Shown here: piece by piece, positions 1 through 59,928 of the stretch
Numbering within the stretch: position 1 is the first letter of the stretch
Layout: every line of letters begins with the position of its first letter
DNA from: Eledone cirrhosa
Lineage: Eukaryota
Direction: 5' to 3'
DNA length: 64,000 nt
Assembly: GCA_964016885.1 (NCBI GenBank)
Contig: OZ024741.1
Location: forward strand, 195,114,001-195,178,000
Notes under the pieces: model-generated
Told to the model about the DNA's origin: nothing
The model's input: the letters and a program-made list of their open reading frames with translations, nothing else
Database searches by the model: none
Made by a program: the position numbers and the translations under genes

Positions 1-3000
1 CTGCCTATGTTATATATTGTATGTAGCCTATGTTATATATTGTATGCTGCCTATGTTATATATTGTATGCGGCCTGAATTATATATTGCGTGCTGCCTAT
101 GTTATATATTGTATGTGGCCTGTGTTATATATTGTATGCTGCCTACGCTATATATTGTATGCTGTCTATGTTATATATTGTATGTGGCCTATGTTATATT
201 CCCTATGTGGCCTGTGTTATATTTTGTATCTGGCCTAAGTTATTTATTGTATTTGGCCTATGTTATATATTGTTTGCTGCCTATGTTATATATTGTATGC
301 TGCCTATGTTATATTTTGTATGTGGCCTATATTATATATTGTATGCTGCCTATGTTATATTGTATGTGATCTATTTTATATATTGTATGCTCCCTATGTT
401 ATATATTGTATGTGCCTATGTTTTATATTTTATGCTGCCTATGTTATATATTGTATGTGGCCTATGTTATATACTCTATGTGGCCTGTGTTATATTTTGT
501 ATGTGGCCTATGTTATAATTGAAAGTGGGCTATGTTATATATTGTATGTGGCCTATGTTATATATGGTATGCTGCCTATGTTATATATTGTTCGTGGCCT
601 ATGTTATATATTGTATGTTGCCTACGTTATATATTGTATATGGCCTATGTTATATATTGTATGTAATCTACGTTATATATTGTATGCTGCCTACGCTATA
701 TATTGTATGCTGCCTATATTATATATTGTATGTGGCCTATGTTATATACTCTATGTGGCCTGTGTTATATTTTGTATGTGGCCTATGTTATATATTGTAT
801 GCGGCATTGTTATATATTGTTAGTGTCCTATGTTATATATTGTATGGTGCCTATGTTATATATTGTATGTGGCCTATGTTATATATTGTATGCTGCCTAC
901 GTTATATATTGTACGCTGCCTATGTTATTTAATGTATGCTGCCTATGTTATATATTCAATGTAGCCTATGTTATATATTGTATGCTGCCTATGTTATATT
1001 TTGTATGCGGCCTAAATTATATATTGCGTGCTGCCTATGTTGTATATTGTATGTGGCCTCAATTATATATTGCGTGCTGCCTATGTTTTATATTGTATGC
1101 TGCCTATGTTATATATTGTATGTGGCCTATATTATATATTGTATGTGGCCTATGTTATATACTCTATGTGGCCTGTGTTATATTTTGTATGTGGCCTATG
1201 TTATATATGGTATGCTGCCTATGTTATATATTGTTAGTCGCCTATGTTATATATTGTTAGTGGCCTATGTTATATATTGTATGCTGCCAACGTTATATAT
1301 TGTATATGGCCTATGTTATATATTGTATGTGATCTACGTTATATATTGTATGCTGCCTACGCTATATATTGTATGCTGCCTATATTATATATTGTATGTG
1401 GCCTATGTTATATATTCTATGTGGCCTATGTTATATTTTGTATGTGACCTATATTATATATTGTATGCGGCATTGTTATATGTTGTTAGTGGCCTATGTT
1501 ATATATTGTATGTGGCCTATGTTATATATTGTATGCTGCCTACGTTATATATTGTATATGGCCTATGTTATATATTGTATGCGGTATATGTTATATATTG
1601 TACGCTGCCTATGTTATTTAATGTATGCTGCCTATGTTATATATTGTATGCTGCCTATGTTATATTTTGTATGCGGCCTAAATTATATATTGCGTGCTGC
1701 CTATGTTATATATTGTATTTGGCCTGTGTTATATATTGTATGCTGCCTACGCTATATATTGTATGCTGCCTATGTTATATATTGTATGTGGCCTATGTTA
1801 TTTGTTGTATCTGGCCTTTGTCTTATACTGTATGCTGCCCATGTTATATATTGTGTGCTGCCTTTTTTATATATTGTATGTGGCCTATGTTATATATTTT
1901 ACGTGGCCTATGTATTATAATGTATGCTGCCTATGCTATATAACGTATGCTGCCTATGATATATATTCTATGTGGCCTATGCTATATATTGTATGCTGCC
2001 TATGTTATATATTGTATGTGGCCTATGCTACATATTGTATGTAGCCTATGTTATATATTGTATGCTGCCTATGTTATATATTGTATGTGGCCTATGCTAT
2101 ATATTGTATGTGGCCTATGTTATATATTGTATGCCGCCTATGCTATATATTGTATGCTGCCTATATTATATATTCTATGTGGCCTATGTTATATATTGTA
2201 TGCGGTATATGTCATATATTGTATGTTGACTATGTTATATATTGTATGTGGCCTATGTTATACATTGTATGCTGCCTATGTTATATATTGTTAGTGGCAT
2301 ATGTTATATATTGTATGCTGCCTACGTTCTATATTGTATATGGCCTATGTTATATATTGTATGCGGCATATGTTATATATTGTACGTTGCCTATGTTATA
2401 TAAGGTATGCTGCCTATGTTATATATTGTATGTAGCCTATTTTATATATTGTATGCTGCCTATGTTATATTTTGTATGCGGCCTAAATTATATATTGCGT
2501 GCTGCCTATGTTATATATTGTGTGTGGCCTATGTTATATATTGTATGCTGCCTACGCTTTATATTGTATGCTGCCTATGTTATATATTGTATGTGGCCTA
2601 TGTTATATACTCTATGTGGCCTGTCTTATATTTTGTATGTGGCCTATGTTATATATTTTATGTGGCCTATGTTATATATTGTATGATGCCTATGTTATAT
2701 ATTGTATGTGGCCTATGTTATATATTGTATGCTGCCTATGTTATATATTGTATGTGGCCTATGTTATGTATTGTATGCTGCCTATGTTATATATTGTTAG
2801 TGACCTATGTTATATATTGTATGCTGCCTATGTTATATATTGTATGTGGCCTATGTTATATATTGTATGCTGCCTACGTTATATATTGTATATGGCCTAT
2901 GTTATATATTGTATGCGGTATATGTTATATATTGTATGTGGCCTATGTTATATACCCTATGTGGCCTGTGTTATATTTTGTATGTGGCCTATGTTATATA

Positions 3001-6000
3001 TTGTATGTGGCCTATATTATATATTGTTTGCTGCCTATGTTATATATTGTATGCTGCCTATGTTATATATTGTATGTGGCCTATATTATATATTGTATGC
3101 TGCCTATGTTATATTGTATGTGATCTATTTTATATATTGTATGCTCCCTATGTTATATATTGTATGTGCCATATGTTTTATATTGTATGCTGCCTATGTT
3201 ATATATTGTATGTGGCCTATGTTATATACTCTATGTGGCCTGTGTTATATTTTGTATGTGGCCTATGTTATAATTGAAAGTGGCCTATGTTATATATTGT
3301 ATGTGGCCTATGTTATATATTGTATGCTGACTACGTTATATATTGTATATGGCCTATGTTATATATTGTATGTGATCTACGTTATATATTGTATGCTGCC
3401 TACGCTTTATATTGTATGCTGCCTATATTATATATCGTATGTGGCCTATGTTATATACTCTATGTGGCCTGTGTTATATTTTGTATGTGGCCTATGTTAT
3501 ATATTGTATGCGGCATTGTTATATATTGTTAGTGTCCTATGTTATATATTGTATGGTGCCTATGTTATATATTGTATGCTGCCTACGTTACATATTGTAC
3601 GCTGCCTATGTTATTTAATGTATGCTGCCTATGTTATATATTGTATGTAGCCTATGTTATATATTGTATGCTGCCTATGTTATATTTTGTATGCGGCCTA
3701 AATTATATATTGCGTGCTGCCTATGTTATATATTGTATGTGGCCTGTATTATATATTGTATGTGGCCTATGTTATATATTGTTTGCTGCCTATGTTATAT
3801 ATTGTATGCTGCCTATGTTATATACCCTATGTGGCCTGTGTTATATTTTGTAAGCGGCCTACGTTATAAATTGTATGCTGCCTATTTTATATAGTGTATG
3901 TGGCCTAGGTTATATATTGTATATGGCCTATGTTATATATTGTATGCTGCCTATGTTATATACTCTATGTGGCCTATGTTTTATATTGTATGTTATCTAT
4001 GTTATATATTGTATGTTGCCTATGTTATATATTGTATGTGGCCAATGTTATATATTCTATGTGGCCTATGTTATTTATTGTAATCTGCCTACGCTATATA
4101 TTGTATGCTGCCTATGTTATATATTGTATGTGGCCTAATTTATATACTCTATGTGGCCTGTGTTATATTTTGTGTGTGGCCTATGTTATATATAGTATGT
4201 GGCCCATGTTATATATTGTATGTTGCCTATGTTATATATCGTATGCTGCCGATGTTATATATTTATGTGGCCTATGTTATATATTGTATGCTGCCTACGC
4301 TATATATTGTATGCTGCCTATGTTATATATTGTATGTGGCCTATGTTATATACTCTATGTGGTCTGTGTTATATTTTGTGCGTGGCCTATGTTATATATT
4401 GTATGCGGCATATATTTTATATTGTATGCTGCCTATTTTAAATTTTGTATGCGGCCTATGTTATACATTGTATGTGGTCTATGTTATATATATTATTCTG
4501 CCTATGTTATATATTATAATCTAACTATGTTATATATTGTATGATGCCTATGTTATATATTTTATGTGGCCTATGTTATATATTGTATTCTGTCTACGCT
4601 ATATATTGTATGCTGCCTATGTTATATATTGTATGTGGCCTATGTTATATATTGTATGCTATCTATGTTATATATTGTATGTGGCCTACGTTATATATTG
4701 TATGCTGCCTATACTATATATTGTATGTGGCCTATGTTATATACTCTATGTGGCCTGTGTTATAATTTGTGTGTGCCCTATGTTATATATTGTATGTAGC
4801 CCCTGTTATATATTGTATGCGGCATATGTTTTATATTGTATGCTGCTTATTTTATATTTTGTATGTGGGCTATGTTATATATTGTAATTCACCTATGTTA
4901 TATATATTATTCTACCTATGTTATATATTATATTCTACCTATGTTATTATTGTATGATGCCTATGTTATATATTGTATGCTGCCTATGTTATATATTGTA
5001 TGTGGCCTATGTTATATGTTGTATGTTATCTATTTATATATTGTATGCGGCATATGTTATATATTGTATGCTGCCTATGATATATATTGTATGTGGCCTG
5101 TGTTATATTTTGTACGTGGCCTATGTTATATATTTATGTGGCCTGTGTTATATTTTGTATGTGGCCTATGTTATATATTGTATGTTGCCTTTGTTATATA
5201 TTGTATGCTGCCTTCTTTATATATTATATGCTGCCTATGTTATGTACTCGATGTGGCCTGTGTTATATTTTGTATGTGGCCTATGTTATATATTGTATGT
5301 TGCCTATGTTATATATTGTATGTTGCCTATATTATATATTGTATGTGGCCTATGTTATATACTCGATGTGGCCTGTGTTATATTTTGTATGTGGCCTATG
5401 TTATATATTGTATGTTGCCTATGATATATATTGTATCTTGCCTATATTATATTTTCTGTGTTGTCTATGTTATATATTGTAAATGGCCCATGTTATATAT
5501 TGTATGCGGCATATGTTATATATTGTAATTGGCCTATGTTATATATTGTATAATGCCTATGTTATATATTGTATGTGGCCTATGTTACATATTGTATGTG
5601 GCCTATGTTATATATTGTATGCGGCATATGTTATATATTGTATGCTGCCTATGTTATATATTGTATGTGGCCTATGTTATATTTTGTATGTGGCCTATGT
5701 TATATATTGTATGCTGCTTATGTTATATATTGTATATGGCCTATGCTATATATTTTAAGCTGCCTATATTATATATTGTATATGGCCTATGTTATATATC
5801 GTAAGCTGCCTATAATATATATTGTATGTGGCCTATGTTATATATTGTATGTGGCCCATGTTATATATTGTATGAGGCCTATGTTATATATTGTATGCTG
5901 CCTATGTTATATATTGTTAGTGGCCTATGTTTTATATTGTATGTTGCCTATGTTATATATTGTATGTGGCCTATGTTATATACTCTATATGACCTGTGTT

Positions 6001-9000
6001 ATATTTTGCATGTGGCCTATGTTATATATTGTATGTTGCCTATGTTATATAATGTATGCAGCATATGTTATATATTGTATGCTGCCTATGTTATATATTG
6101 TATGCTGCCTATGTTATATATAGTATGCTGCCTATGTTATATATTGTATGTGGCCTATGTTATATATTGTATGCTGCCTATGTCAAATATTGTTTGTGGC
6201 CTATGTTATATATTGTATGCTGCCTATGTTATATATAATGTATGCTGCCTATGTTATATATTGTATGCTGCCTTTGCTATATATTGTATGTGGCCTATGT
6301 TATATATTGTATGGGGCCTATGTTATATATTGTATGCTACTTATGCTATATATTGTATGATGCCTATTGTATACATTGTATGCGGCATATGTTATATATT
6401 ATATGCGACCTATGTTATATATTGTATGCTGCCTATGTTATATATTGTATGTGGCCTATGTTATACATAGTCAGCGGCCTATGTTATATATTGTATGCTG
6501 CCTATTTTATATAGTGTATGTGGCCTAGGTTATATATTGTATATGGCCTATGTTATATATTGTATGCTGCCTATGTTATATATTGTATGTGGCCTATGTT
6601 ATATATTGTATGTGGCCTATGTTATATATTGTATGCGGCCTACGCTATATATTGTATGCTGCCTATGTTATATATTGTATGTGGCCTATGTTATATATTG
6701 TATGCTGTCTATGCTATATATTGTATGCTGCCTATGTTATATATAGTATGTGGCCTATGTTATATAATCTATGTGGCCTGTGTCATATTATGTGTGTGGC
6801 CTATGTTATATATTGTATGCTGCCTATTTTATATAGTGTATGTGGCCTAGGTTATATATTGTATATGGCCTATGTTATATATTGTATGCTGCCTATGTTA
6901 TATATTGTATGCTGCCTATTTCATATATTGTATGTGGCCTATGTTATATATTGTATGTGGCCTATGTTATATATTGTATGCTGCCTACGCTACATATTGT
7001 ATCTGCCTATGTTATATATAGTATGTGGCCTATGTTATATAATCTATGTGGCCTGTGTCATATTTTGTGTGTGGCCTATGTTATATATTGTATGTGGCCT
7101 ATGTTATATATTGTATGCGGCATAAGTTTTATATTGTATGCTGCCTATTTTATATTTTGTATTCGGACTATGTTATATATTGTAATTGGTCTATGTTATA
7201 TCTATTCTTCTGCCTATGTTATATATTATATTCTACCTATGTTATATATTGTATGCTGCCTACGTTATATATTGTATGCCGCCTATGTTATATATTGTAT
7301 GTGGCCTATGTTATATATTGTATGTGCCATATGTTATATATTGTATGTGCGATATGTTTTATATTGTATGCTGCCTATGTTATATATTGTATGTGGCCTA
7401 TGTTATATATTGTATGTGGCCTATGTTATATATTGTATGTGGCCTATGTTATATATTGTATGCGGCATATGTTATATATTTTATGCTGCCTATGTTATAT
7501 ATTGTATGTGGCCTATGTTATATATTGTATGCTGCCTACGTTATATACTGTATGCGGCCTATGTTATATATTGTATGCTGCCTATGTTATACATTGTATG
7601 CTACCTATCTTATATATTGTATGCTTTCTATATTATATATTGTATGCTGCCTATATTATATATTGTATGTGGCTTATGTTATATATAATATGCTGCCTAT
7701 GTGATATATTGTATGCTGCCTATTTTATATTTTGTAGGCGGCCTATGTTATACATTGTATTCTACCTATGTTATATATTGTATGATGCCTATGTTATATA
7801 TTGTATGTGGCCTATGTTATGTATTGTATGTGTTCAATGTTATATATTGTATGCTACCTATGTTATATATTATATGCTGCCTATGTTATATATTGTATGC
7901 TGCCTATGTTATATATTGTATGTGGCCTATGTTATATACTCTATGTGGCCTGTGTTATATTTTGTGCGTGGTTTATGTTATATATTGTATGTGGACCATG
8001 TTATATATTGTATGCGGCATATGTTTTATATTGTATGCTGCTTATTTTATATATTATATGCTGCCTATGTTATATATTGTATGCTGCCTATGTTATATAT
8101 TGTATGCTGCCTACGTATATATTGTATGCTGCCTATGTTATATATTGTATGTGGCCTATGTTATATACTCTATGTGGCCTGTGTTATATTTTGTGTGTGG
8201 TTTATGTTATATATTGTATGTGGCCCATGTTATATATTGTATGTGGCATATGTTTTATATTGTATGCTGCTTATTTTATATTCTGTATGCGGCCTATGTT
8301 ATAAATTGTAATTGCCCTATGTTATATATATTATTCTACCTATGTTATATATTATATTCTACCTATGTTATATATTATATTCTACCTATGTTATATACTG
8401 TACGATGCCTACGTTATATATTGTATGTTGTCTATGTTATATATTGTATGCTGCCTATGTTATATATTGTATGTGGCATATGTTATATATTGTATGCTGC
8501 CTATGTTATATATTGTATGTCGACTATGTTATATATTGTATGTGGCATATGTCATCTATTGTATGTGGCCCATGTTATATATTGTATGTGGCCTATGTTA
8601 TATATATTATTCTGCCTATGTTATATATTATATTCTACCTATGTTATATATTCTACGATGCCTATGTTATATATTGTATGCTGCCTATGTTATATATTGT
8701 ATGTTACCTATGTTATATATTGTATGCTGCCTACGTTATATATTGTATGTGGCCTATGTTATATATTGTATGCTACCTATGTTATATATTGTATATGGCC
8801 TATATTATATATTATATTCTACCTATGTTATATATTGTATGATGCCTATGTTATATATTGTATGTGGTCTATGTTATATATTGTATGTGTCCTATGTTAT
8901 ATGTTGTATGCTACCTATGTTACATATTGTATGTTGCCTATGTTATATATTGTATGTGGCCTATGTTATATATTGTATGCTGCCTAGGTATATATTGTAT

Positions 9001-12000
9001 GCTGCCTATGTTATATATTGTATGTGGCCTATGTTATATACTCTATGTGGCCTGTGTTATATTTTGTGTGTGGCCTATGTTATATATTATATGCTGCCTA
9101 TGTTATATATTGTATGTGCCATATGTTTTATATTGTATGCTGCCTATGTTATATATTGTATGTGGCCTATGTTATATATTGTATGTGGCCTATGTTATAT
9201 ATTGTATGCGGCATATGTTATATATTGTATGCTGCCTATGTTATATATTGTATGTGGCTTATGTTATATATTGTATGCTGCCTATGTTATACATTTATGT
9301 CGCCTATGTTATATATTGTATGCTGCCTATGTTATATATTGTTAGTGGCCTATGTTTTATATTGTATACTGCTTATATTATATATTGTATGTGGTCAATG
9401 TTATATATTGTAAGCTGCCTATATTATATATTGTATGTGGCCTATGTTATATAATGTATGCTGCCTATGTTATATATTGTATGCTGCCTTTGTTATATAT
9501 TGTATGTGGCCTATGTTATATATTGTATGGGGCCTATGTTATATATTTTATGCGACCTATGTTATATATTGTATGCTGCCTATGTTATATATTGTATGTG
9601 GCCTATGTTATACATTGTATAGGGCCTATGTTATATATTGTATGCTGCCTATTTTATATAGTGTATGTGGCCTAGGTGATATATTGTATGTGGCCTATGT
9701 TATATATTGTATGCTGCCTATGTTATATATTGTATGTGGCCTATGTTATATATTGTATTCGGCCTATGTTATATATTGTAATTGGTCTATGTTATATCTA
9801 TTATTCTGCCTATGTTATATATTATATTCTACCTATGTTATATATTGTATGATGCCTATGTTATATATTGTATGTGGCCTATGTTATATATCGTATGCGG
9901 CATATGTTATATATTGTATGCTGCCTATGTTATATAATGTATGTGGCCTATGTTATATATTGTATGTGATCTATTTTATATATTGTATGCTGCCTATGTT
10001 ATATATTGTATGTGCCATATGTTTTATATCGTATGCTGCCTATGTTATATATTGTATGTGGCCTATGTTATATAGAGTATGTGGCCTATGTTATATATTG
10101 TATGTGGCATATGTTATATATTGTATGCTGCCTATGTTATATATTGTATGTGGCCTATGTTATATATTTTATGTGGCCTATGTTATATATTGTATGCTGC
10201 CTACGTTATATATTGTATGCGGCCTATGTTATATATCGTATTCTGCCTATGTTATACATTGTATGCTACCTATCTTATATATTGTATGCTGTCTATATTA
10301 TACATTGTATGCTGCCTATGTTATATTTTGTATGTGGCTTATGTTTTATATTATATGCTGCCTATGTGATATATTGTATGTTGCCTATGTTATATATTGT
10401 ATGTTACCTATGTTATATATTGTATGTTGCATATGTTATATATTGTATGTGGCCAATGTTATATATTGTATGTGGCCCACGTTATATATTGTATGCTGCC
10501 TATGTTATATATTGTATGTGGCCTATACTATATATTATATTCTACCTATGTTATATATTGTATGCTGCCTATGTTATATACTCTATGTGGCCGGTGTTAT
10601 ATTTAGTCTGGGGCCTATGTTATATATTGTATGTGGCCCATGTTATATATTGTATGCGGCATATGTTTTATATTGTATGTCGCCTATGTCATATATTGTA
10701 TCCTGCCTATGTTATATATTGTTAGTGGCCTATGTTTTATATTCTATGCTGCCTATGTTATATATTGTATGTGGCCTATGTTATATATTGTAAGCTGCCT
10801 ATTTTATATATTGTAAGTGGCCTATGTTATATAATGTATGTTGCCTATGTTAAATATTGTATGCTGCCTTTGTTATATATTGTATGTGGCCTATGTTATA
10901 TATTGTATGGGCCCTATGTTATTTATTTTTTGTTGGCCTATGTTATATATTGTATGTGGCCTATGTTATATATTGTATGATGCCTATTGTATACATTGTA
11001 TGTGGCCTATGTTATCTATTATATGCGGCCTATGTTATATATTGTATGCTGCCTATGTTATAAATTGTATGTGGCCTATGTTATATATTGAATGTAGCCT
11101 ATGTTATACATTGTTTGCTGACTATGTAATACATTGTATGCTGCCTGTGTTATATATTGTATGCTGCCTATGTTATATATTGTATGTGGCCTATGTTATA
11201 TATTGTATGTGGCCTAATTTATAAACTCTATGTGGCCTGTGTTATATTTTGTGTGTGGCCTATGTTATATATTGTATGTGACCCATGTGATATATTGTAT
11301 GTGGCCCATGTTATATATTGTATGTTGCCTATGTTTTATATTGTATGCTGCCTATGTTATATATTGTATGTGGCCTATGTTATATATATTATTCTGCCTA
11401 TGTTATATATTATATTCTACCTATGTTATATATTGTATGATGCCTATGTTTTATATTGTATGCTGCCTATGCTATATATTGTATGTGGCCTATGTTATAT
11501 AATGTATGCTGGTTATGTTATACATTGTATGCGACATATGTTATATATTGTATGCTGCCTATGTTATACTTTGTATGCTGCCTATGTTATATATTGCATG
11601 CTGCCTATGTTATACATTGTATGTTGCCTATGTTATATATTGTATGCTGCCTATTTTATATATTGTATGCCGCCTATGTTATATACTTTTTGCGGCCTCT
11701 GTTATATATTGTATGCTGCCTATGTTATACATTGTATGCGGCCTCTGTTATATATTGTATGCTGCCTATGTTATATATTGTATGTGGCATATGTTATATA
11801 TTGTATGCCGCCTATTTTATATATTTTTTGCGGCCTCTGTTATTTATTGTCTGTTGCCTATGTTATACATTGTATGCGGCCTATGTTATACATTGTATGC
11901 AGCCTATGTTATATATTGTATGCTGCCTATTTTATATATTGTATGCTGCCTATGTTATATATTGTATGCGGCCTATGTTATATATTGTATGCTCCCTATG

Positions 12001-12078
12001 TCATATATTGTATGCTGCCTATGTTATATATTGTATGCGGCCTATGTTATATATTGTATGCGGCCTATGTTATACATT
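1..12078. repeat. 23-bp tandem satellite, consensus TTGTATG(TG/CT)GCCTATGTTATATA, about 520 copies, runs off the window start
   Basis: Unit read directly. The ORF track repeats a 23-aa period (MLPMLYIVCGLCYILYVAYVIYC = 3 x 23 nt) in all plus frames. Abrupt end near 12078. Confidence 0.97.
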
Positions 12079-12222
12079 GGAGAAAGCTATTTTAGATTTT
12101 TTTTAAACAACAGTCAAACTGAAGCTAAAATAGTAATTTATTTATAAGTTAATATTCTTTTTACTTATGTTTCATATACGCTATACATAGAGTGAAAGAG
12201 TTATAACGAACTGGACATCGAA

Positions 12223-15376: not shown

Positions 15377-15438
15377 TGTTTTATCTGATGAGGGCGTACT
15401 GTTCAACTTAACTCAGTACCTCTGAAATATGTATAATA
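15377..15438 (+). ncRNA. Type I hammerhead motif
   Basis: ttttat-CTGATGA-gggcgtactg..cagtacctct-GAAA-tatgta-TA^ataaaa. Confidence 0.78.
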
Positions 15439-20059: not shown

Positions 20060-20114
<55 letters not shown>

Positions 20115-20115
<1 letters not shown>

Positions 20116-21042
20116 GAAAAAATGAAACGAAATTTCATTTCCCACTCTTAGTACGGCTGTTACTTAAATATAAGTATGTACACCTACATACAATAGTATG
20201 TATATATATATATATATATATATACATACATGCACACATATATATATGTGCGTATGGATTCACCGAACATCTATTATAATGCTCGGTGTGTTTGTAAACA
20301 AACATCCCGTATTAAGCCGTAGTGTCTAGCAGCCATCGTTGCTCGTTTGTTCAACAATGATAAAGGAACGCTGTACTAGTTTCAAGCTTATTAGCTATCG
20401 TCAGCAACGTATACCTTCCTGCCAGAGTGTTGAACGTATATACTTACCTTATGCATATTAACGGCAGAGTAGCCCAATTTGCATATCGAGTGGGTTAATC
20501 GGCCGGGTGCACCGAAAACGATAAACGGAAAAAATGAAACGAAATTTCATTTCCCTCTCTTAGTACGGCTGTTACTTAAATATAAGTATGTACACGTACA
20601 TACATATATATATACAGACATACAATAGTATGTATATATATATATATACATACATGCACACATATATATATGTACGTATGGATTCACCGAATATCTATTA
20701 TAATGCTCGGTGTGTTTGTAAACAAACATCCCGTATTAAGCCGTAGTGTCTAGCAACCATCGTTGCTCGTTTGTTCAACACTGACAAAGTAACGCTGTAC
20801 TAGTTACAAGCTTATTAGCTATCGTCAGCAACGTATACCTTCCTGCCAGAGTGTTGAACGTATATACTTACCTTATGCATATTAACGGCAGAGTAGCCCA
20901 ATTTGCATATCGAGAGGGTTAATCGGCCGGGTGCACCGAAAACGATAAACGGAAAAAATGAAACGAAATTTCATTTCCCACTCTTAGTTACTTAAATATA
21001 AGTATGTACACGTTAATACATATATGTATACAGACATACAAT
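20115..21042 (-). repeat. Tandem ~412-424 nt HHR-bearing units (2.2 copies) at the 3' end of a PLE
   Basis: Units start at 20115, 20527 and 20951. HHR on minus strand acgttg-CTGACGA-t agct aata agct t-GAAA-ctag-TA^cagcgt at 20368-20410. The copy at 20792-20834 has GTAA in place of GAAA. Confidence 0.88.
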
Positions 21043-22830
21043 AGGAAACGGTGGAAGTGGTACAAATGAAAATAAATATGAAAAAAAATATGAAAAAATA
21101 ATAATAAAAATAAAAATAAACATGAAGATAAACAAGTGGTGGAAGGGTGCAGTGGGGAGAGGGAGGCGGGGTGTCCGAGCGGGAAGGGCTGAAGGTGGTT
21201 TGTGTGTATAGGTGTACGTGTGTGTGTGTGTGCGTGTGTGTGTGTGTGTATGTGAATGTGAGAGTTGGGGGACGAACGGGGTTCCATGTTCAGGAAAAGG
21301 TGTGTGTGGGGTGGGGTGTAGGTCGGTGTGTGTGTGTGCGTGTGTGGATGGGGAGGGGTCAGAGGGGCGAGAGGATTCCGGAGTCTGAGTGTGTAAATAT
21401 GTGGGGGTACGCACGTGTGTGTGGTGTTTATACGTATCGTGGATGTAGGTGGCGCGTGGGAAAAACATTTTTTGTGAGTGGGTAAGTTCCTAAGGTAGTT
21501 CCGTAGGGGTTTGGTGGGGTGCAGGATATTTTCCTTGTGATGGAGTTGATTCGTTGGAGCGAGGTCCAATGTGTGTAATCTGTGGTTGGGTTGGTCGGAA
21601 GAGGGGAGATGTGGGGTGCGCGCGCAACAGGAAGTGGTCAGAGGGTCAAGGCAGGAGGAGGGTTGTGTGTCTGTGTGTGCGGAGAGGTGGTCAGAGGGTC
21701 AGGGCATAGCAGCATTAGGAGAGAATGGCAGGTGGAGAAAGTCGGTGTGTCAGTGTGTGCGGAGGTGCGGTGGACAGGCGAGAGGATGGGTAGGTGTGAA
21801 AGGTGGAGTGGGGAGGGGGTCGTGCGGGGGAGGGGGTGTATTAGTAGAGGTGTTAGTGGGATGTGTGTGTGAAGGGGTGTGGGTGGAGCGGGGAGAGAGA
21901 GAGGTGTACTGGTGTGTGTGTGCGTGTTTGGATGAGTGTGTGTGTGCTGAAGGGGGTGTTAGTGGGTGTTAGTATACTGGTGGTGGGGAAAGGGTTGAAT
22001 GCGGGTGTGTTAGTGGGGGTCAGCGGTGGTAGGGTGTGTAGAGTGGGTGGTGTAAGTGGGTGTGGGTGGGTGTGTGTGTTCGTGTGCGTGGGGTCGGGGG
22101 GAGTGTGGGTCTGTAGGGTGAAGATGGTGCGTTGTTCGACCCTGAGGAGGGTGGCGTGTGTACCGTGGCATTGGAGTAGACCACAGACTGTGAGGTGGTG
22201 CGCGGGATGTCCATGGGAGCCAAAGTGGCAGGCGATGGGGGAACTACCGCCGAGACGAATATCCCGGGGGTGTTCGGTAAAACGGTCCGCCAGGCGACGT
22301 CCAGTCTGTCCGACGTAGGTTGCGCTACACTCCGTGCAGCAAAGTCCATAGACTAGGTTGGAGGAAGTGCAGCGGAAGGCGTGCCGGACAGAGAGAGAGT
22401 GGCCGTTGGGACCCTGGAAGGTGGTGGTGTTGGTGATGTGGGGACAGGTGTTGCAACGAGGCCTGGAACCGGGAAGGGAACCGGGTGGGGTGGGGGGAAA
22501 GAGAGCGTGGGTAGGGGGTAGGGAGCTGCGGACGAGGAGGGTGCGGAGATTGCGTGCGCGTTTGAAGGAGGGGAGTGGTGGGGCTGGGAAGATGTGGGAG
22601 GTGGAAGGGTCGGACTGGAGGCGTCGGAAGAGGCGAAGGATGGTGCGGTGGAGGGGTAGGGTGGAGGGGTGGTAGGTGATGAGGAAGGGGAGATGGTGGG
22701 TGGGTGGGCGGTGGCGTGGGGTGAGGGCGGTGGAGCGGTGGACAGCACGGGCGCGAGTGAGGGCGGTGTGGACGAGGGGGGTAGCCTCTGCGGATGAAAT
22801 GGCTGACTAGGGAAAGGGCCTGGGACTCAA
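21043..22830 (-). mobile_element. 5'-truncated Neptune-like PLE: thumb/linker + GIY-YIG, with a long CA-rich 3' UTR
   Basis: Manual translation in a frame missing from the ORF track: RGYP..FLITYHP..FKRARNLRTLLVRS..RCNTC..FRCTSSNLVYGLCCTECSATYVGQTGRRLADRFTEH. Confidence 0.88.
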
Positions 22831-29403: not shown

Positions 29404-29925
29404 AAGCGGTGGGAGGGACCGTCCTGACGAAGGCCAGTTAAGCCTGAAATGCATAGACGGTTGTCCCCCTTGCTTCTGCTGGACACCACTAGAGGGCGTT
29501 AGCCCCCCCCCCCCCCCCGGTGTTTTCAGAGCTACGGCTTCCTAAAACTGTATTTCTTTGGAGATACAAAATATTTATACATATTGTATAAAGCTATGCT
29601 TGAAGGGAAATCCTATTTCTTTTTTTATTATAAGTTGAGCCAACTTATGCAGCTTCATATGCAAATGAGATTAATCACCTCATTTACACAGACGAGAAAT
29701 GTATATATTCTCAGCTGTCTTTTAGTCCAGCAGTCGCAAGCGGTGGGAGGGACCGTCCTGACGAAGGCCAGTTAAGCCTGAAATGCATAGACGGTTGTCC
29801 CCCTTGCTTCTGCTGAACATCACCAGAGGGCGTTAGCCCCCCGCTGTTTGCATAGCTACGGCTTCCTAAAACTGTATTTATACATATTGTATAAAGCTAT
29901 GCTTGAAGCGAAATCCTATTTCTTT
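29404..29925 (+). mobile_element. Retrozyme-like element: two direct repeats, each with an intact hammerhead, 334-nt period
   Basis: accgtc-CTGACGA-aggc cagttaa gcct-GAAA-tgca-TA^gacggt at 29418-29461 and 29752-29795. No ORF. TA-flanked. Confidence 0.88.
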
Positions 29926-35190: not shown

Positions 35191-36077
35191 CACATATTTG
35201 ACAATGCCAGGACCCGTTGTATTTCAGCGTACTCAATAGATAATGCAGAATATATTCCAGAGTATAAACATAGTTATTCGCTCCAATACAACACACGTAA
35301 ACGGGTGCTTATATTAGTTCCCGGACTCGAGTTTTGGCCACACTTAATGCAGCAGTAGAGTGCACTGCACCCTCTGTCTGCATATATTATGAAACAATTC
35401 ATAATCGGCGCATGTGGATTCATCAGCGGGCATTGCCTAATCCTTAACCAATCGATCGACAGAATTCAACTCCAGTCCATGCCGGCTATGACTGTATGTA
35501 ACGGCCGACACAGTAAAGTGACTATATATATATATATATATATATATTTCGTTTCTGAATTTGTTTAGCAAGATTCTTTATCTGAAATCGTGTGTTGAAA
35601 CCGATATTGTTATACTTTGGGAGGGTCATGTTGCCAATAAGAAACACACGCACCAGTTGCTTTCACTTCAATTTATTATATATTTATAAATTTATAAATT
35701 TACAAATCTACAAACTTATAAATTTCTGGTTGGTTGGTTGGTTCCACAACCAGATAGTTGTTTATATATATAGTCATAGTCCTTTCGTCACACACTCTGT
35801 GACCTCTTCAGTGACTGGGGATTCCTTTCTTCGTTTCTGTGCCTTTTCTTTTTTTATCCTACGCCATTTTGTTTCTGTGTGTGTGTGTTGTGTGCTCAGT
35901 TTGCGCATGTGCCACATCCGGGTGTCTGTGTGTGTTTGTGTTCATTTTTCTATTTGTTTATTTATTTATTGTTGGTTGGTTGTTTGTTCTATGTGTGTGT
36001 GTGTTTTCATTTTGTCCTGTGTGTGTTTTCAATTGTAAGTTGTTTGTTCTATGTGTGTGTGTGTTTTCATTTTGTCC

Positions 36078-36929
36078 TTAATTGTAAGTTGTGATGTTGC
36101 TGTTCCACTCATATTTTCTATTTAATTTTGGTTTTAATTCTTTTATGCTTACTGCCTCTGTAATTTGCCTAAACATTGCGTCTTTTCTGTGTGTGGATTC
36201 TATTTTTATTTCTATGCTCTCTAATCTACCCCTGTGTTCCATCTTAGCATGTTGGTAGAGCACAGATGATTCTTTATTATCTTGGAGGTCTCGCCAGTGT
36301 TCATTTATTCGTTCCCCTATACTACGAGCTGTCTCACCTATGTACACTATATTTTTGTTTCTACATTGTCCCTCAGTACATCTTATGCTATACACTACAT
36401 TTCTAGTTTTACAGTTAATATGGGGGCTTATTTTACAGGTTATACATTTCTTATCTATACATGAGGGTCTTTGGAACGGGTATGTCTTGCTAATAAGTGT
36501 TTTTACGGAGGTACCAGGTCTTTCTACTATCTTAATATTGAGATTATGTTTATTTAGGGCCCTTCTAAATTTGTAGGCTAGTTCGCCTCTAGGGGTTGTA
36601 TTGATGAACATTACACTCTGGTATTTATTGCTATCATACCATGAGTTTATTCTATTGGCCTTGTTCCTAGTTCTTTCTATTCTATTCCAAAATTTGCTCC
36701 TATACAAGGGGCAGGTCCCATTTATGTCATTATTTACCATTTTTTCCCATTTGGTTCTGGCTCCGTTATACACTCTGATTCTATCTCTCTGATTGTAGCC
36801 AGAGAACTGCATACGGTGGATGAAGTGTTGTATGTGTCTCTCTAGTTCTTCGGGGTTGCACATGCGGGACACATTTCTCATCACCCGTACCAAATCCGCA
36901 ATCAGTATGTTGATTTTGGTATGGACCAT
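36078..36929 (-). CDS. Mirror 283-aa PLE GIY-YIG ORF
   Basis: Inverted copy differing at three residues (V/D, A/T, N/K). Confidence 0.7.
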   Translation of the reverse strand: MVHTKINILIADLVRVMRNVSRMCNPEELERHIQHFIHRMQFSGYNQRDRIRVYNGARTKWEKMVNNDINGTCPLYRSKFWNRIERTRNKANRINSWYDSNKYQSVMFINTTPRGELAYKFRRALNKHNLNIKIVERPGTSVKTLISKTYPFQRPSCIDKKCITCKISPHINCKTRNVVYSIRCTEGQCRNKNIVYIGETARSIGERINEHWRDLQDNKESSVLYQHAKMEHRGRLESIEIKIESTHRKDAMFRQITEAVSIKELKPKLNRKYEWNSNITTYN

Positions 36930-37772
36930 ACCAAAATCAACATACTGATTACGGATTTGGTACGGGTGATGAGAAATGTGTCCCGCATGTGCAACCCCGA
37001 AGAACTAGAGAGACACATACAACACTTCATCCACCGTATGCAGTTCTCTGGCTACAATCAGAGAGATAGAATCAGAGTGTATAAAGGAGCCAGAACCAAA
37101 TGGGAAAAAATGGTAAATAATGACATAAATGGGACCTGCCCCTTGTATAGGAGCAAATTTTGGAATAGAATAGAAAGAACTAGGAACAAGGCCAATAGAA
37201 TAAACTCATGGTATGATAGCAATAAATACCAGAGTGTAATGTTCATCAATACAACCCCTAGAGGCGAACTAGCCTACAAATTTAGAAGGGCCCTAAATAA
37301 ACATAATCTCAATATTAAGATAGTAGAAAGACCTGGTACCTCCGTAAAAACACTTATTAGCAAGACATACCCGTTCCAAAGACCCTCATGTATAGATAAG
37401 AAATGTATAACCTGTAAAATAAGCCCCCATATTAACTGTAAAACTAGAAATGTAGTGTATAGCATAAGATGTACTGAGGGACAATGTAGAAACAAAAATA
37501 TAGTGTACATAGGTGAGACAGCTCGTAGTATAGGGGAACGAATAAATGAACACTGGCGAGACCTCCAAGATAATAAAGAATCATCTGTGCTCTACCAACA
37601 TGCTAAGATGGAACACAGGGGTAGATTAGAGAGCATAGAAATAAAAATAGAATCCACACACAGAAAAGACGCAATGTTTAGGCAAATTACAGAGGCAGTA
37701 AGCATAAAAGAATTAAAACCAAAATTAAATAGAAAATATGAGTGGAACAGCAACATCACAACTTACAATTAA
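36921..37772 (+). CDS. 283-aa PLE C-terminal ORF (thumb/linker + GIY-YIG endonuclease, no RT core)
   Basis: Uninterrupted ORF: C-x4-C-x2-C..C, NVVYSIRC, YIGETARSIGERINEH, RQITEAV, LNRK. Confidence 0.7.
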   Translation: MDHTKINILITDLVRVMRNVSRMCNPEELERHIQHFIHRMQFSGYNQRDRIRVYKGARTKWEKMVNNDINGTCPLYRSKFWNRIERTRNKANRINSWYDSNKYQSVMFINTTPRGELAYKFRRALNKHNLNIKIVERPGTSVKTLISKTYPFQRPSCIDKKCITCKISPHINCKTRNVVYSIRCTEGQCRNKNIVYIGETARSIGERINEHWRDLQDNKESSVLYQHAKMEHRGRLESIEIKIESTHRKDAMFRQITEAVSIKELKPKLNRKYEWNSNITTYN

Positions 37773-38869
37773 GGACAAAATGAAAACACACACACACATA
37801 GAACAAACAACTTACAATTGAAAACACACACAGGACAAAATGAAAACACACACACACATAGAACAAACAACCAACCAACAATAAATAAATAAACAAATAG
37901 AAAAATGAACACAAACACACACAGACACCCGGATGTGGCACATGCGCAAACTGAGCACACAACACACACACAGAAACAAAATGGCGTAGGATAAAAAAAG
38001 AAAAGGCACAGAAACGAAGAGAGGAATCCCCAGTCACTGAAGAGGTCACAGAGTGTGTGACGAAAGGACTATGACTATATATATAAACAACTATCTGGTT
38101 GTGGAACCAATCAACCAACCAGAAATTTATAAGTTTGTAGATTTCTAAATTTATAAATTTATAAATATATAATAAATTGAAGTGAAAGCAACTGGTGCGT
38201 GTGTTTCTTATTGGCAACATGACCCTCCCAAAGTATAACAATATCGGTTTCAACACACGATTTCAGATAAAGAATCTTGCTAAACAAATTCAGAAACGAA
38301 ATATATATATATATATATATATATAATTATTCCGGGTTCAATCGGGGGTAACCACAGTAAGTAGGGTACTCAATACATAGAGTATAAATGTTTTAATATA
38401 GAAAAGCTTCTATAGGACTAGAACTGTTTCATTCGTGAGAAATCATAAGGAAGCTGACTGTCCAAGTAAGTAGTGGTATTTATATCTGTTCTTTTCTGGT
38501 AGTAGGAGAGGGTGGGGATTGGGATGGGTGGAGGTCATTGGTTGATGGGTTTAAAGAAAATTGAATTCATTAAAAGCTAATTCTTTAAAGCTATCATTTA
38601 TACTAAGAGTGACAAAGGCAGAAAAAATACGGTAAATAGGTTTAAATTGGAATACCAATCCTTGTTTTTAAGTATCTCTTAAACTAACAAAGCCTGTATG
38701 TCAGGTGTCTACAGGATGGGTAGGGTTCATTGGTTTAAAGAAAAGGGAATTCTTTAAAGCTGAATTTAGGATGACAAAGGCATAAAGAAATCTATAAAGA
38801 GGTTCAAGTTTTGGGGTGCTTCCCCTTATTGTGAAGTTTCTCTTAAGCTATATTCCGGGTGTCGGCAAG

Positions 38870-52450: not shown

Positions 52451-52744
52451 GATCAAAAGACGGTTAAAAGAGTTCCAAGTATTTTATTATGCGCATTTCA
52501 AAAACAAATATCATCATGGAATGATATCTGCGTTCTCATCAGATAAAATAGGGATACATATGAAGCTTAAAAAACACTTGTGAATAGTGAAGTTTTAAAT
52601 CTTCACTATTCACAAGTGTTTTTTAAGCTTCATATCATGTATCCCTATTTTATCTGATGAGAACGCAGATATCATCCCATGATGATATTTGTTTTTGAAA
52701 TGCGCATAATAAAATACTTGGAACTCTTTTAACCATCTTTTGAT
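52451..52744. mobile_element. Fold-back (~142-nt arms) with two outward-facing intact hammerheads
   Basis: tattttat-CTGATGA-gaacgcagatatcat..atgatatttgttttt-GAAA-tgcgca-TA^ataaaata at 52646-52716 (+) and 52480-52550 (-). Confidence 0.88.
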
Positions 52745-56537: not shown

Positions 56538-57093
56538 GAGAGGTATAGAGATTGTTTTAGCAAGAAGCTAACGGCATTCTATAACATATATGCGACTATA
56601 ACGTCAAGATAGGAAAAGTAGTTAACGAAAGATTTAGGAAAAATAACTCAAACTCATCTCAAAAGAGAATCAGGATATAAATTCATCCACAGAATTTAGT
56701 AAAATCCAGGGAAAAATCTATAGACCTTTAACTCATGATAAAATAAAGTTTGAAACACTTATCTTTCAATTTGGAATAACATCAAATGCTCTGTATAGTC
56801 TTAAAAGACTATTTCATGAAAACTTTCAGTGGAGATGGTCACGGTTGGATTTCATTCATCAGCAGAGCTCAACAGAAAACCAGGGCTCTCACAGTAATAT
56901 AATCCGAAAAAGGGAATTCTAAAACTGGCTAGTTCGCCTTCATGTGTATTTATGAAAAAGCACATGAGGAAAAAACGGGGCTAGTGACGTCAGGATGGAA
57001 GTGAATGTTTATTTACAAGAAATAGCAGTCAAATACATTCTGAAAAAATGTATTTGACTGCTATTTGTATTTGACTGCTATATATATATATAT

Positions 57094-58210
57094 AATTAAG
57101 TTAAAAAAGTACATCTACATATGCATACTGAAATACTAGTGTGTATATGAATACACACACGTATACATATGTATATGTAACAAGTCTTTCACTGGTTGCT
57201 TTACTGTGAGCACCCAGCTATTCTGTATGTAAACACACAGACAAACCGGTTTTTAGAGTCATACTGGTTTTTGAGGGAACACCTTCCCTCTATTCTCCAG
57301 AAAGCCAGACAAGGAATATTGAACTAGTTTCGTTGTTGTTACAACTCATCAGCAATATTTACCTATCTACCGGCCCTTCTGGAGAATTGTAAAAGCACAT
57401 ATCGTTATATGCTTTTTCTATGAAAATTAGTAGTGGGCAGACTAATTTGCATAGAGTGTGAGTACGCACCGGTTCAGCGGAGACGATAAAAACAAATAAC
57501 GAAACGAAATTAAATTTCGTTTCGTTTGTAACTCACTTTTGTATGACTGACGCTTAAACAATTAAGTTAAAAAAGTACATCTACATATGCATACTGAAAT
57601 ACTAGTGTGTATATGAATACACACACGTATACATATGTATATGTAACAAGTCTTTCACTGGTTGCTTTACTGTGAGCACCCAGCTATTCTGTATGTAAAC
57701 ACACAGACAAACCGGTTTTTAGAGTCATACTGGTTATTTGTTTTTATCGTCTCCGCTGAACCGGTGCGTACTCACACTCTATGCAAATTAGTCTGCCCAC
57801 TACTAATTTTCATAGAAAAAGCATAACGATATGTGCTTTTACAATTCTCCAGAAGGGCCGGTAGATAGGTAAATATTGCTGATGAGTTGTAACAACAACG
57901 AAACTAGTTCAATATTCCTTGTCTGGCTTTCTGGAGAATAGAGGGAAGGTGTTCCCTCAAAAACCAGTATGACTCTAAAAACCGGTTTGTCTGTGTGTTT
58001 ACATACAGAATAGCTGGGTGCTCACAGTAAAGCAACCAGTGAAAGACTTGTTACATATACATATGTATACGTGTGTGTATTCATATACACACTAGTATTT
58101 CAGTATGCATATGTAGATGTACTTTTTTAACTTAATTGTTTAAGCGTCAGTCATACAAAAGTGAGTTACAAACGAAACGAAATTTAATTTCGTTTCGTTA
58201 TTTGTTTTTA
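57094..58210. mobile_element. Retrozyme-like 466-nt unit: 1.4 tandem copies (-) fused to one inverted, circularly permuted copy (+)
   Basis: Repeat starts at 57094 and 57560; inversion at ~57733. aatattg-CTGATGA-gttgt aaca acaac-GAAA-ctag-TT^caatatt at 57872-57916 (+) and 57315-57359 (-). Confidence 0.92.
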
Positions 58211-59177
58211 GTTTTTATATATATATATATTATGGAATACTGTTGGCTTTTTGCTACAATATTTTCTATACCTTTCTATATATATATTTGTTATATGAAC
58301 AGATTAAAGTTTAAGCAAAGAATCGCTGCTTTCAACATTAACGGGATCTTCTGAAACTAAATAATTCAATCTGTGAACGCAGAAATAAATATTTCGAGAA
58401 ACATTGCAACCGAAGGAAAACAGGAAGACGAGATTTTGGTTTGTGAAGACTTTCCCTGGCAATGAACGGAAAACAAGCGAGGATAATACGTCGTTATGTG
58501 GACCGAGAAGAACAATTTCATGCAAAGACAAGACCAAGTTTATGGTATAAATGGAGTCTTTAGACTAATGTTCTATTTAAAATAACCAAATGATTTCCAG
58601 CCCGGGAGTTTAAGAATGATGTAAATAAAATTGTAAACGAAAATGAGAGAGGTTATTAAAATAGTAAAAGTAAATAGTGAAGATGTAGGTCAGTACATAG
58701 GTATGCCCCGACGGACATACACATACATATACATACGCACACACTAATACATACACAAACACGCACGCGCGCGCGCATGCGTGTGCGTGTGTAAACCTTA
58801 TGCATTTCTATAGCATTTTCACCAAACTTAAGACATAGGTTACTTATGTACTCCGGATGGTCATGGACACTTTCATTTTTCCAGATATTGATTATATGGC
58901 CTCCCGGCAGATAACCCTCTTTAACCGCTTTCTTGGAAGCAGTGCAATGCAATAAAACGTCATAACTTCTGGAGTTCGCAACCGATTTTCACAAAACTTG
59001 ACACATGGGCTACGTTTGTTCTACAGATGAATGTTAAATCTCAGAATTGGCACATATTGAGTACGGGAGCCCTGGAGGAAGGAACCCCCTTTTTGGAAAA
59101 AGCCAATGATTTTGTAAAAGTATAGTTTTCGAAGCAGCACAGAAGTATTGACATAAATGGTATACATAACTGCTATT

Positions 59178-59211: not shown

Positions 59212-59290
<79 letters not shown>

Positions 59291-59928
59291 AACAACGTTT
59301 AGCAAATAAGGAAAAAGTTTCAAAATAAATAAAAAAAAATTAACATTACCTACTATAGTTACCTTTACCGAATCGGTTTCGAATCTCAAAAATAAACGGA
59401 GTCCATACGGCCTTCGTTGCAAAGAAAGATTCTCGTCAGAAGGTTCTTTACATTCGAAGAATATAAAATTCTCGAACTTAAATTACAAACTGGCGCTATT
59501 CAAAATTGTTCCCGAAATGAGAATAAATGGAGTGGAATCAATTTTTTCAAGGGCCGAGTGCAAAGATAGAAGCAGAGGCAGGCAGGTCAGTCTGCTACCG
59601 CTATAACTAGCAGCAGTCAGAACGACCAAATTATTTTCTTAACATAGAGGAGAATAGTAATAATAGAATATGTGTTCCTACACGCACAATGCGCTAAGGG
59701 ACACGTATTGTCCAACCAAATGCCAGTGTGGTTCAATGGCAGGTTAATAAATTAACGAGCCAGAACATATATAAACAAGGTTTAGCAAATAAGGAAAAAG
59801 TTTCAAAATAAATTTTAAAAAATTAACATTACCTACTAAAATTTATTTTGAAACTTTTTCCTTATTTGCTAAACCTTGTTTATATATGTTCTGGCTCGTT
59901 AATTTATTAACCTGCCATTGAACCACAT
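59291..59928 (-). mobile_element. Retrozyme-like 483-nt unit with ~64-nt terminal redundancy and 5' inversion
   Basis: Repeat starts at 59291 and 59774; 59839-59928 is the reverse complement of 59727-59816. HHR (-) 59361-59444: acctt-CTGACGA-gaatct..agattc-GAAA-ccg att cgg-TA^aaggt. Confidence 0.88.

Follow-up and report, generated by a model that had tools for sequence, protein, structure and literature searches.

A two-armed non-coding retrozyme insertion, probably primed by a borrowed Penelope-type enzyme at two fixed sites, likely on one circular RNA

The window, i.e., the whole 64-kb stretch of DNA that was analysed, contains at positions 57094-58210 a two-armed, non-coding insertion of a 466-nt unit with a hammerhead ribozyme. 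We consider it probable that this retrozyme insertion was produced by a borrowed Penelope-type enzyme; its template, primed at two fixed sites, was likely a single circular RNA. We are mildly inclined to go further, and to regard the genome as a direct record of rolling-circle retrotransposition, in which an enzyme dimer primes twice on one closed RNA and ADAR edits barcode this template throughout both arms.

Structure of the insertion and its ribozymes

Registers of the unit were numbered from the predicted ribozyme cut, on the ribozyme-sense strand. In this numbering both arms point outwards; the left one ends at register 228 and the right one at 301. The left or A arm (57094-57735, minus strand, 642 nt) comprises 1.38 turns of the 466-nt unit, with its RNA-sense 3' end at fixed site A (register 228) and its 5' end at register 53. 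The initial annotation had placed unit starts at 57094 and 57560, and this is what we find: the second turn begins at 57560, and the overlapping parts of the two turns, 57094-57269 and 57560-57735, differ by 0 mismatches. It had also noted a flip near 57733 followed by a full-turn right arm, which corresponds to the B arm (57733-58210, plus strand, 478 nt), an inverted unit of 1.03 turns whose RNA-sense 3' end is fixed site B (register 301) and whose 5' end lies at register 288. The sequence GTTATTTGTTTTTA is both the start and the finish of this arm. At the inversion junction (57733-57735) the arms overlap by 3 nt, i.e., there is microhomology, and their only difference is one 2-nt deletion in the right arm, so that the earlier description of them as essentially identical is accurate.

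The stretch of about 70 nt between sites A and B forms a 'tail' at 58138-58210 (plus strand), with a 13-bp hairpin inside it at 58171-58199; an internal copy of the tail lies at 57486-57559 (minus strand; hairpin 57498-57526). The octamer ATGCAAAT is found at 57781-57788 (plus strand), and its copy in the A arm at 57445-57452 (minus strand). To the left, the insertion adjoins a (TA)n target (57079-57093); the right flank (58211-58231) consists of a short B-end repeat (GTTTTTA) and the right (TA)n target. The ends of the element are accounted for by target priming. The G+C content of the unit is 169/466, and its predicted folding is much stronger than that of shuffled sequences (z -10.6, 0/100). 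No ORF of at least 120 aa overlaps the element. Because it is without an ORF for a reverse transcriptase (RT) and GIY-YIG endonuclease, we did not file it as an autonomous Penelope-like element.

Each arm carries one complete type I hammerhead motif, with core and stems intact, as the initial annotation had stated along with the lack of an ORF. In the A arm, the motif spans 57299-57370 (minus strand), with a predicted GUU^C cut between 57322 and 57321; in the B arm, it spans 57861-57932 (plus strand), with the predicted cut between 57909 and 57910. The Rfam model Hammerhead_HH9 (RF02275) scores 38.6 bits (E 6e-8), which is under its gathering threshold of 52 because the loop of stem III is missing, and the Rfam search at gathering level gave 0 matches in the 64-kb window. 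Stem III is the palindrome ACUAGU. The predicted cut triplet is GUU in the window unit, GUC in older subfamilies and GUA in a related 424-nt family; GUU is a less usual hammerhead cut triplet. Among seven hammerhead variants, whose sequences are related, 6 of 13 pairs have changed on both sides, and the covariation is higher than in 500 of 500 shuffles.

Li et al. (10.64898/2026.07.22.740005) recognise active copies by two consecutive hammerheads on the same strand. The window copy has a single hammerhead per strand, and many sister copies have two in succession; this outcome speaks to the activity of the window copy, not to that of the family. With one ribozyme per arm, the window copy is likely a dead-end product that is unable to release a monomer. 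That is, it is likely a product rather than a source.

The 466-nt family and its paired ends

Exact hammerhead cores number 9,238 in the 3.0-Gb genome, and one element end directly adjoins a TA run, by exact match, in 2,042 places (control 0), the latter count being a lower bound on insertion ends. Copies were mapped by BLAST against the tiled unit. Their identity to the window unit ranges from 82 to 100%, mainly in groups near 87, 94 and 98%, and the closest copies differ from it by 0.2%. Tandem arrays of up to 15 turns were measured, and among the runs listed there is one with about 30 cores in a row. Duplicates were removed (L017, L111, L171, L185, L187, L189, L191, L196, L245, L254, L255, L304 and L308), as was L258, which consists of two adjacent elements; L315 and L319 were also excluded from the counts, though they are not true duplicates. 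Taken together, the family has one type I hammerhead per unit, a small multicopy tandem organisation, a G+C content below 50% and, in the window copy, no ORF of at least 120 aa. The initial annotation had spoken of a young retrozyme-like element, and this is supported. The 466-nt family is a young animal non-LTR retrozyme, and an addition to that group.

The published animal non-LTR retrozymes, as described in the available accounts, likewise consist of a small, tandem, non-coding unit of low G+C content with one type I hammerhead and a strong fold; they also occur in thousands of copies, in genomes that hold Penelope elements as well. Their units are 170-400 nt long, in contrast to 466 nt here, a length that nevertheless falls within the 51-972 nt of Li et al. 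It has been proposed for them that a Penelope enzyme copies an RNA circle into tandem cDNA, and the circles have been demonstrated by northern blot (PMC7229834; 10.64898/2026.07.22.740005), whereas the 466-nt family is known here from DNA. As far as their accessible text goes, these two accounts are without inverted two-armed insertions, fixed paired ends or genomic evidence for a single template, and the word 'inverted' is absent from the main text of the former. Relatives of the 466-nt family exist in at least one other species, since contigs of sequencing run X5 extend across most of the unit; in runs X5-X20, all from other organisms, 17-41% of the unit's words are present. No RNA run was listed as containing the unit, which has no bearing on whether it is expressed.

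The octamer ATGCAAAT is conserved in the 466-nt family and in the related 424-nt family. By analogy, it is possibly an snRNA-type promoter element: newt satellite 2, a hammerhead tandem repeat, is reported to have an internal promoter of this type (as cited in PMC2220036). A copy of the 424-nt retrozyme family lies in the window at 20109-21044 (2.3 turns, minus strand). This family has the same layout as the 466-nt one, the same octamer and a GUA hammerhead with compensatory changes in the stems. Its copy in the window has a B-like end at a TA run, and other copies begin about 57 nt further on, which suggests that the 424-nt family has A and B sites of its own.

Other copies had been predicted to have scattered start registers. 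This expectation failed: the outer ends are located at site A (registers 228-233) or at site B (298-302), i.e., at one of two fixed positions separated by about 70 nt, and only the inner junction is scattered. The two registers of the window copy are thus family-wide fixed priming sites, and fixed ends, one half of what the initial annotation had named as speaking against its own reading, are what we found. In 55 loci unselected for their ends, 37 of 38 inverted copies combine A with B. Among 62 A-anchored loci, 36 are A+B, 2 are A+A and 3 have another combination; in 2 the partner lies beyond the retrieved stretch, 16 are single-armed and 3 run off it. L193 and L227 are the only A+A insertions seen (2 of the 62 A-anchored loci). 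The 171 B-anchored loci comprise 72 A+B, 0 B+B and 8 other combinations, together with 16 whose partner lies beyond the retrieved stretch, 64 single-armed ones, 21 of which carry a short A stub, and 11 that run off. This near-strict A+B pairing suggests that one complex gives each cut end one site.

The outer ends of A+B copies adjoin (TA)n in 237 of 238 cases, the anchored loci having been preselected for (TA)n on one side. The inner junctions of the 135 two-segment insertions show 1-12 nt of overlap (68), are blunt (15) or contain short inserts (39). The A-to-B tail is the most conserved part of the unit, at 0.989, a value inflated by anchoring on the tail itself. By analogy with known systems, this tail is likely the enzyme's binding site. 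Arm stops are slightly enriched near it (47 of 158, versus 23% of the risk, p 0.027), a result that we do not use as proof. In summary, the layout is that of Penelope-mobilised copies, namely a partial tandem with an inverted, 5'-truncated copy, a tail at one end and a (TA)n target. The inversion had been called Penelope-typical, and the paired fixed ends, the one-sided tail and the (TA)n target uphold that reading.

The RNA template of the two arms

The two circular permutations had been taken as the footprint of a circular or multimeric RNA template. The permutation argument itself does not hold: since the registers are fixed priming sites, the two permutations do not reflect random entry into a circle, and circular permutation alone cannot separate a circle from a linear multimer. 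The idea of such a template gains its support elsewhere, and a single-unit, circular one is favoured by two observations, namely read-through of the ribozyme cut and, in sister copies, editing-like A>G changes that are fixed throughout all turns of the two arms. Of the 161 B arms, 108 continue across the cut site, as do 49 of the 72 A arms. Arms that end within 8 nt of it are few (5/111 B, 4/51 A; 9/162 together), and there was 1 indel at the cut site in 4,309 base calls from 718 passes. At this position a cleaved linear monomer would stop the enzyme. Because the cut is crossed, what remains is a circle, a linear multimer or precise jumping.

To characterise the changes that turns have in common, every turn of 283 loci was called against its nearest relatives, with rare substitutions only. 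Arms below 84% identity were left out of this main spectrum; one L359 arm was thereby excluded here and included in the later L359 calls. Rare substitutions in single turns are strand-symmetric (58 A>G and 58 T>C of 593). Those fixed over all turns comprise 25 A>G and 6 T>C of 62, or, counted by unique site, 21 A>G versus 6 T>C (p 0.002). Of the 21 fixed A>G sites, 15 have a 5' U, 4 a 5' A and 2 a 5' C, and none has a 5' G; the background frequency of a 5' U is 42 of 124 adenosines (versus 15/21, p 0.0005). Mollusc ADAR is reported to disfavour a 5' G, and its neighbour preference is as in these sites (PMC6651903). The rarity filter was brought in after the unfiltered count (21 A>G versus 15 T>C) proved not significant, and 66 loci were added later. 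The unfiltered spectrum is weak because retained ancestral bases can read backwards. The 66 added loci hold 10 fixed A>G changes, of which 7 come from L359 alone. By looser rules, only fixed A>G changes occur in 43 loci and only fixed T>C changes in 13, the loci not being independent, and the non-fixed changes show a slight excess (135 A>G versus 112 T>C).

The clearest case is L359 (G000:C11:6430696-6436229), a two-armed locus with 2.5 + 2.1 turns. Of its 16 fixed substitutions, 15 are A>G; they recur in all 4-5 turns and both arms, and many are absent from other loci. Its later single-turn changes are not common to the other turns. A genome-wide search with 33 nt of the L359 haplotype (at most 2 mismatches) recovers 4 sites, all of them in L359, with two in each arm. 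Likewise, all 11 of 11 fixed changes of L119 are A>G across 2-3 turns, and its haplotype has 2 matches, both at L119. At L149, 8 turns in two arms are without difference and carry two private changes. The simplest reading of the L359-type pattern is that one edited RNA molecule served two enzymes, each of which went round it more than twice, i.e., rolling-circle reverse transcription. L359 or L119 may have had a parent that is missing from the assembly, but such a parent would have needed the same single-unit bottleneck. ADAR-type A-to-G hypermutation is known from retroviral DNA, in the form of strand-biased clusters that avoid a 5' G and are fixed by reverse transcription; here, by contrast, the marks lie in a non-viral repeat, recur in every turn and act as a barcode of the template molecule.

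In the predicted circle, edited adenosines are not significantly more often paired (0.69 versus 0.58, p 0.17); the editing may have taken place earlier, prior to cleavage, within the long duplex that an inverted parent would form. No private fixed change was found in the window copy, so for this copy the circle is argued from its relatives. Two short copies show sites seen once, with A>G in 3 of 3 changes at L039 and in 4 of 7 at L086, and these are likely further edited templates.

Not every insertion need derive from one molecule. The distance between arms is smaller than that to the nearest other locus in only 40 of 80 loci, and 42 arm-specific differences are alleles common to other loci (e.g. 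L088, L011 and L025). At L223 (G000:C1:380451294-380456836), a 466-nt A arm is fused directly to an inverted 424-like arm, which likely reflects two templates or a template switch. Together, the shared alleles and L223 indicate that some insertions likely use two RNAs.

The template could in principle be linear RNA that was read through a tandem parent array and never cleaved; its turns would then be alike because such arrays are homogeneous. Arrays of 15 to about 30 units are available as possible parents, and the weak GUU ribozyme could leave multimers. In addition, the anole Poseidon enzyme is reported to have used mainly unprocessed RNA in vitro, with the ribozyme being dispensable (PMC11167929). 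Independent units of an array, however, would not share 15 rare A>G changes, and the haplotype is without a parent in the assembly. Nor is there a cluster of edits confined to one turn: none of 524 turns having a non-fixed change has three or more non-fixed A>G. Variants that are partly shared in two-arm loci point both ways. Four of 23 sit in the same turn of both arms, as read-through would produce, but for two of these four the positions also mirror each other across the junction, the result expected of conversion between the arms. We therefore regard read-through transcripts as an improbable general explanation, which may nevertheless lie behind a minority of insertions. At L033 and L224, variants common to both arms are symmetric about the junction, as expected from gene conversion in a DNA hairpin.

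A second possibility is two-site priming on a linear, self-cleaved monomer. On reaching the 5' end of its template, the enzyme would jump to that molecule's 3' end, so that the monomer acts like a circle although no covalent bond closes it. Template jumping is known for other retroelement enzymes, and this would explain equally well the edits fixed in all turns and both arms. Jumping should leave stops or indels at the cut, yet as few as 9/162 arms end there and the 718 passes yielded the one indel. Retrozyme RNAs of coral, mussel and axolotl, moreover, are reported to accumulate as circles. Thus, we judge jumping on a linear monomer to be unlikely.

Alternatively, short insertions may have come first, with turns and arms multiplied or homogenised later in DNA by unequal crossing-over, gene conversion or fold-back. 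There are 66 partly spread variants with a DNA-like spectrum, which show that some conversion or duplication occurs, and Li et al. favour local tandem amplification for pLTR (10.64898/2026.07.22.740005). Unlike in a fold-back, though, each arm has its own fixed, primed end in (TA)n. Each L359 arm has at least two full edited turns, so that separate duplications or complete conversion of 15 sites would be needed, and the later single-turn mutations of this locus have not been homogenised. Multiplication in DNA is accordingly very unlikely as the origin of the two arms. Finally, a fold-back chimera of satellite made during assembly or library preparation can be dismissed almost entirely, because the arms lack mirror symmetry, end at the sites fixed throughout the family and differ by 2 nt, and because 135 two-segment sisters of the same build have other junctions; no record bridges the window junction by the 31-letter rule, but a 56-nt contig from run X1, which may derive from the assembly's own sample, is identical to 57707-57762 and thus exact across the junction, with fewer than 31 letters on each side. 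Reads aligned to the complete element came predominantly from other copies and restriction ends.

The enzyme, the proposed mechanism and neighbouring repeats

In Penelope elements, the inverted structure has a tail on one side only (PMC3846280; PMC8557442), and the origin of their tandem, inverted and tailed structure has been called undefined (PMC8557442). For anole Poseidon in vitro, two internal start sites were reported to delimit the tail, with both strands cut and extended and with a predicted dimer (PMC11167929). As described in these sources, EN+ Penelope-like elements share with the 466-nt family a partial tandem with an inverted copy, a one-sided tail, a (TA)n or AT-rich target, and two internal start sites around a stem-loop with a hammerhead upstream. 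The 466-nt unit differs in being without an ORF and in the length of its tail, which is about 70 nt instead of 30-40 nt. Its near-strict pairing of A with B also contrasts with Frangieh 2024, where start sites were found without strand preference (PMC11167929); in the accessible text of that paper the word 'circular' is absent.

The retrieved loci yielded no autonomous partner whose end matches, and no ORF continues behind site B in 27 loci chosen for a non-standard continuation (27 of 110 matches). When 30 distinct GIY-YIG-like 3' ends from the retrieved DNA were compared with the unit, local scores were low, at only 16-31. A young element with coding capacity is present at L379 and L380, where its near-full ORFs are 1,226-1,280 aa long and contain RT and GIY-YIG-like motifs read by eye; this family carries a hammerhead of its own, inserts at TA targets and has two ends separated by about 60 nt. 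ORFs of this type, fragments included, gave no match in Pfam and PDB. We do not name this element as the driver, as it has no sequence likeness to the 466-nt unit and its Penelope-like label rests on motifs read by eye. Within the window, an inverted pair of 3' fragments of this young retroelement, with a GIY-YIG-like C-terminus and a hammerhead motif, lies in TA runs at 35547-38300. Both outer ends of this pair are of the same type, and a relative in L326 has two different ends.

Our preferred reading, namely two-site priming on one circle, would proceed as follows. Tandem source copies would be transcribed, perhaps from an internal snRNA-type promoter. The transcripts would then self-cleave, probably as dimers formed through the palindromic stem III, and the cleaved monomers would be ligated into a 466-nt circle. 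Dimer-assisted cleavage has been described for the weak ribozymes of the axolotl. The enzyme would make a cut in each strand of a (TA)n tract, and reverse transcription would be primed from the two ends. A dimeric enzyme is envisaged to bind the hairpin between A and B, each subunit beginning synthesis at a different one of these sites. The two would then circle the RNA and displace each other's cDNA, with the RNA remaining undegraded; Penelope-type enzymes are not known to have RNase H. Synthesis would stop at scattered points, and the two cDNAs would be joined by microhomology.

That retrozyme circles serve as templates for new genomic copies has so far been a proposal only. If the wider reading is true, the circular intermediate of animal retrozymes would be proven, the Penelope tail and inversion would be explained as one event, and RNA editing would be a main source of heritable change in such elements. 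In one assembly, the family makes countable the start site used by each cut end, the use of one molecule for both ends and the occurrence of more than one round of copying. Edited haplotypes would constitute a natural single-molecule barcode, readable in any animal genome with such repeats, and they point to a natural enzyme for the two-ended, rolling-circle writing of RNA into DNA. A literature search, with most subscription papers outside its scope, found nothing on either paired priming or edits as barcodes in retrozymes.

The window contains further repeats of this general kind. Two identical hammerhead motifs of another family lie 334 nt apart on the plus strand, at 29424 and 29758. Hammerhead-like motifs of other repeat families occur at 15385, 47532, 52542, 52654, 53871 and 63541, those at 52542 and 52654 forming an inverted pair. 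A 23-nt satellite occupies 3-12079, with about 526 copies and 83% matches. At 59767-59927, a fold-back of a short repeat end is flanked by TA runs; a copy related to it occupies 59284-59360.
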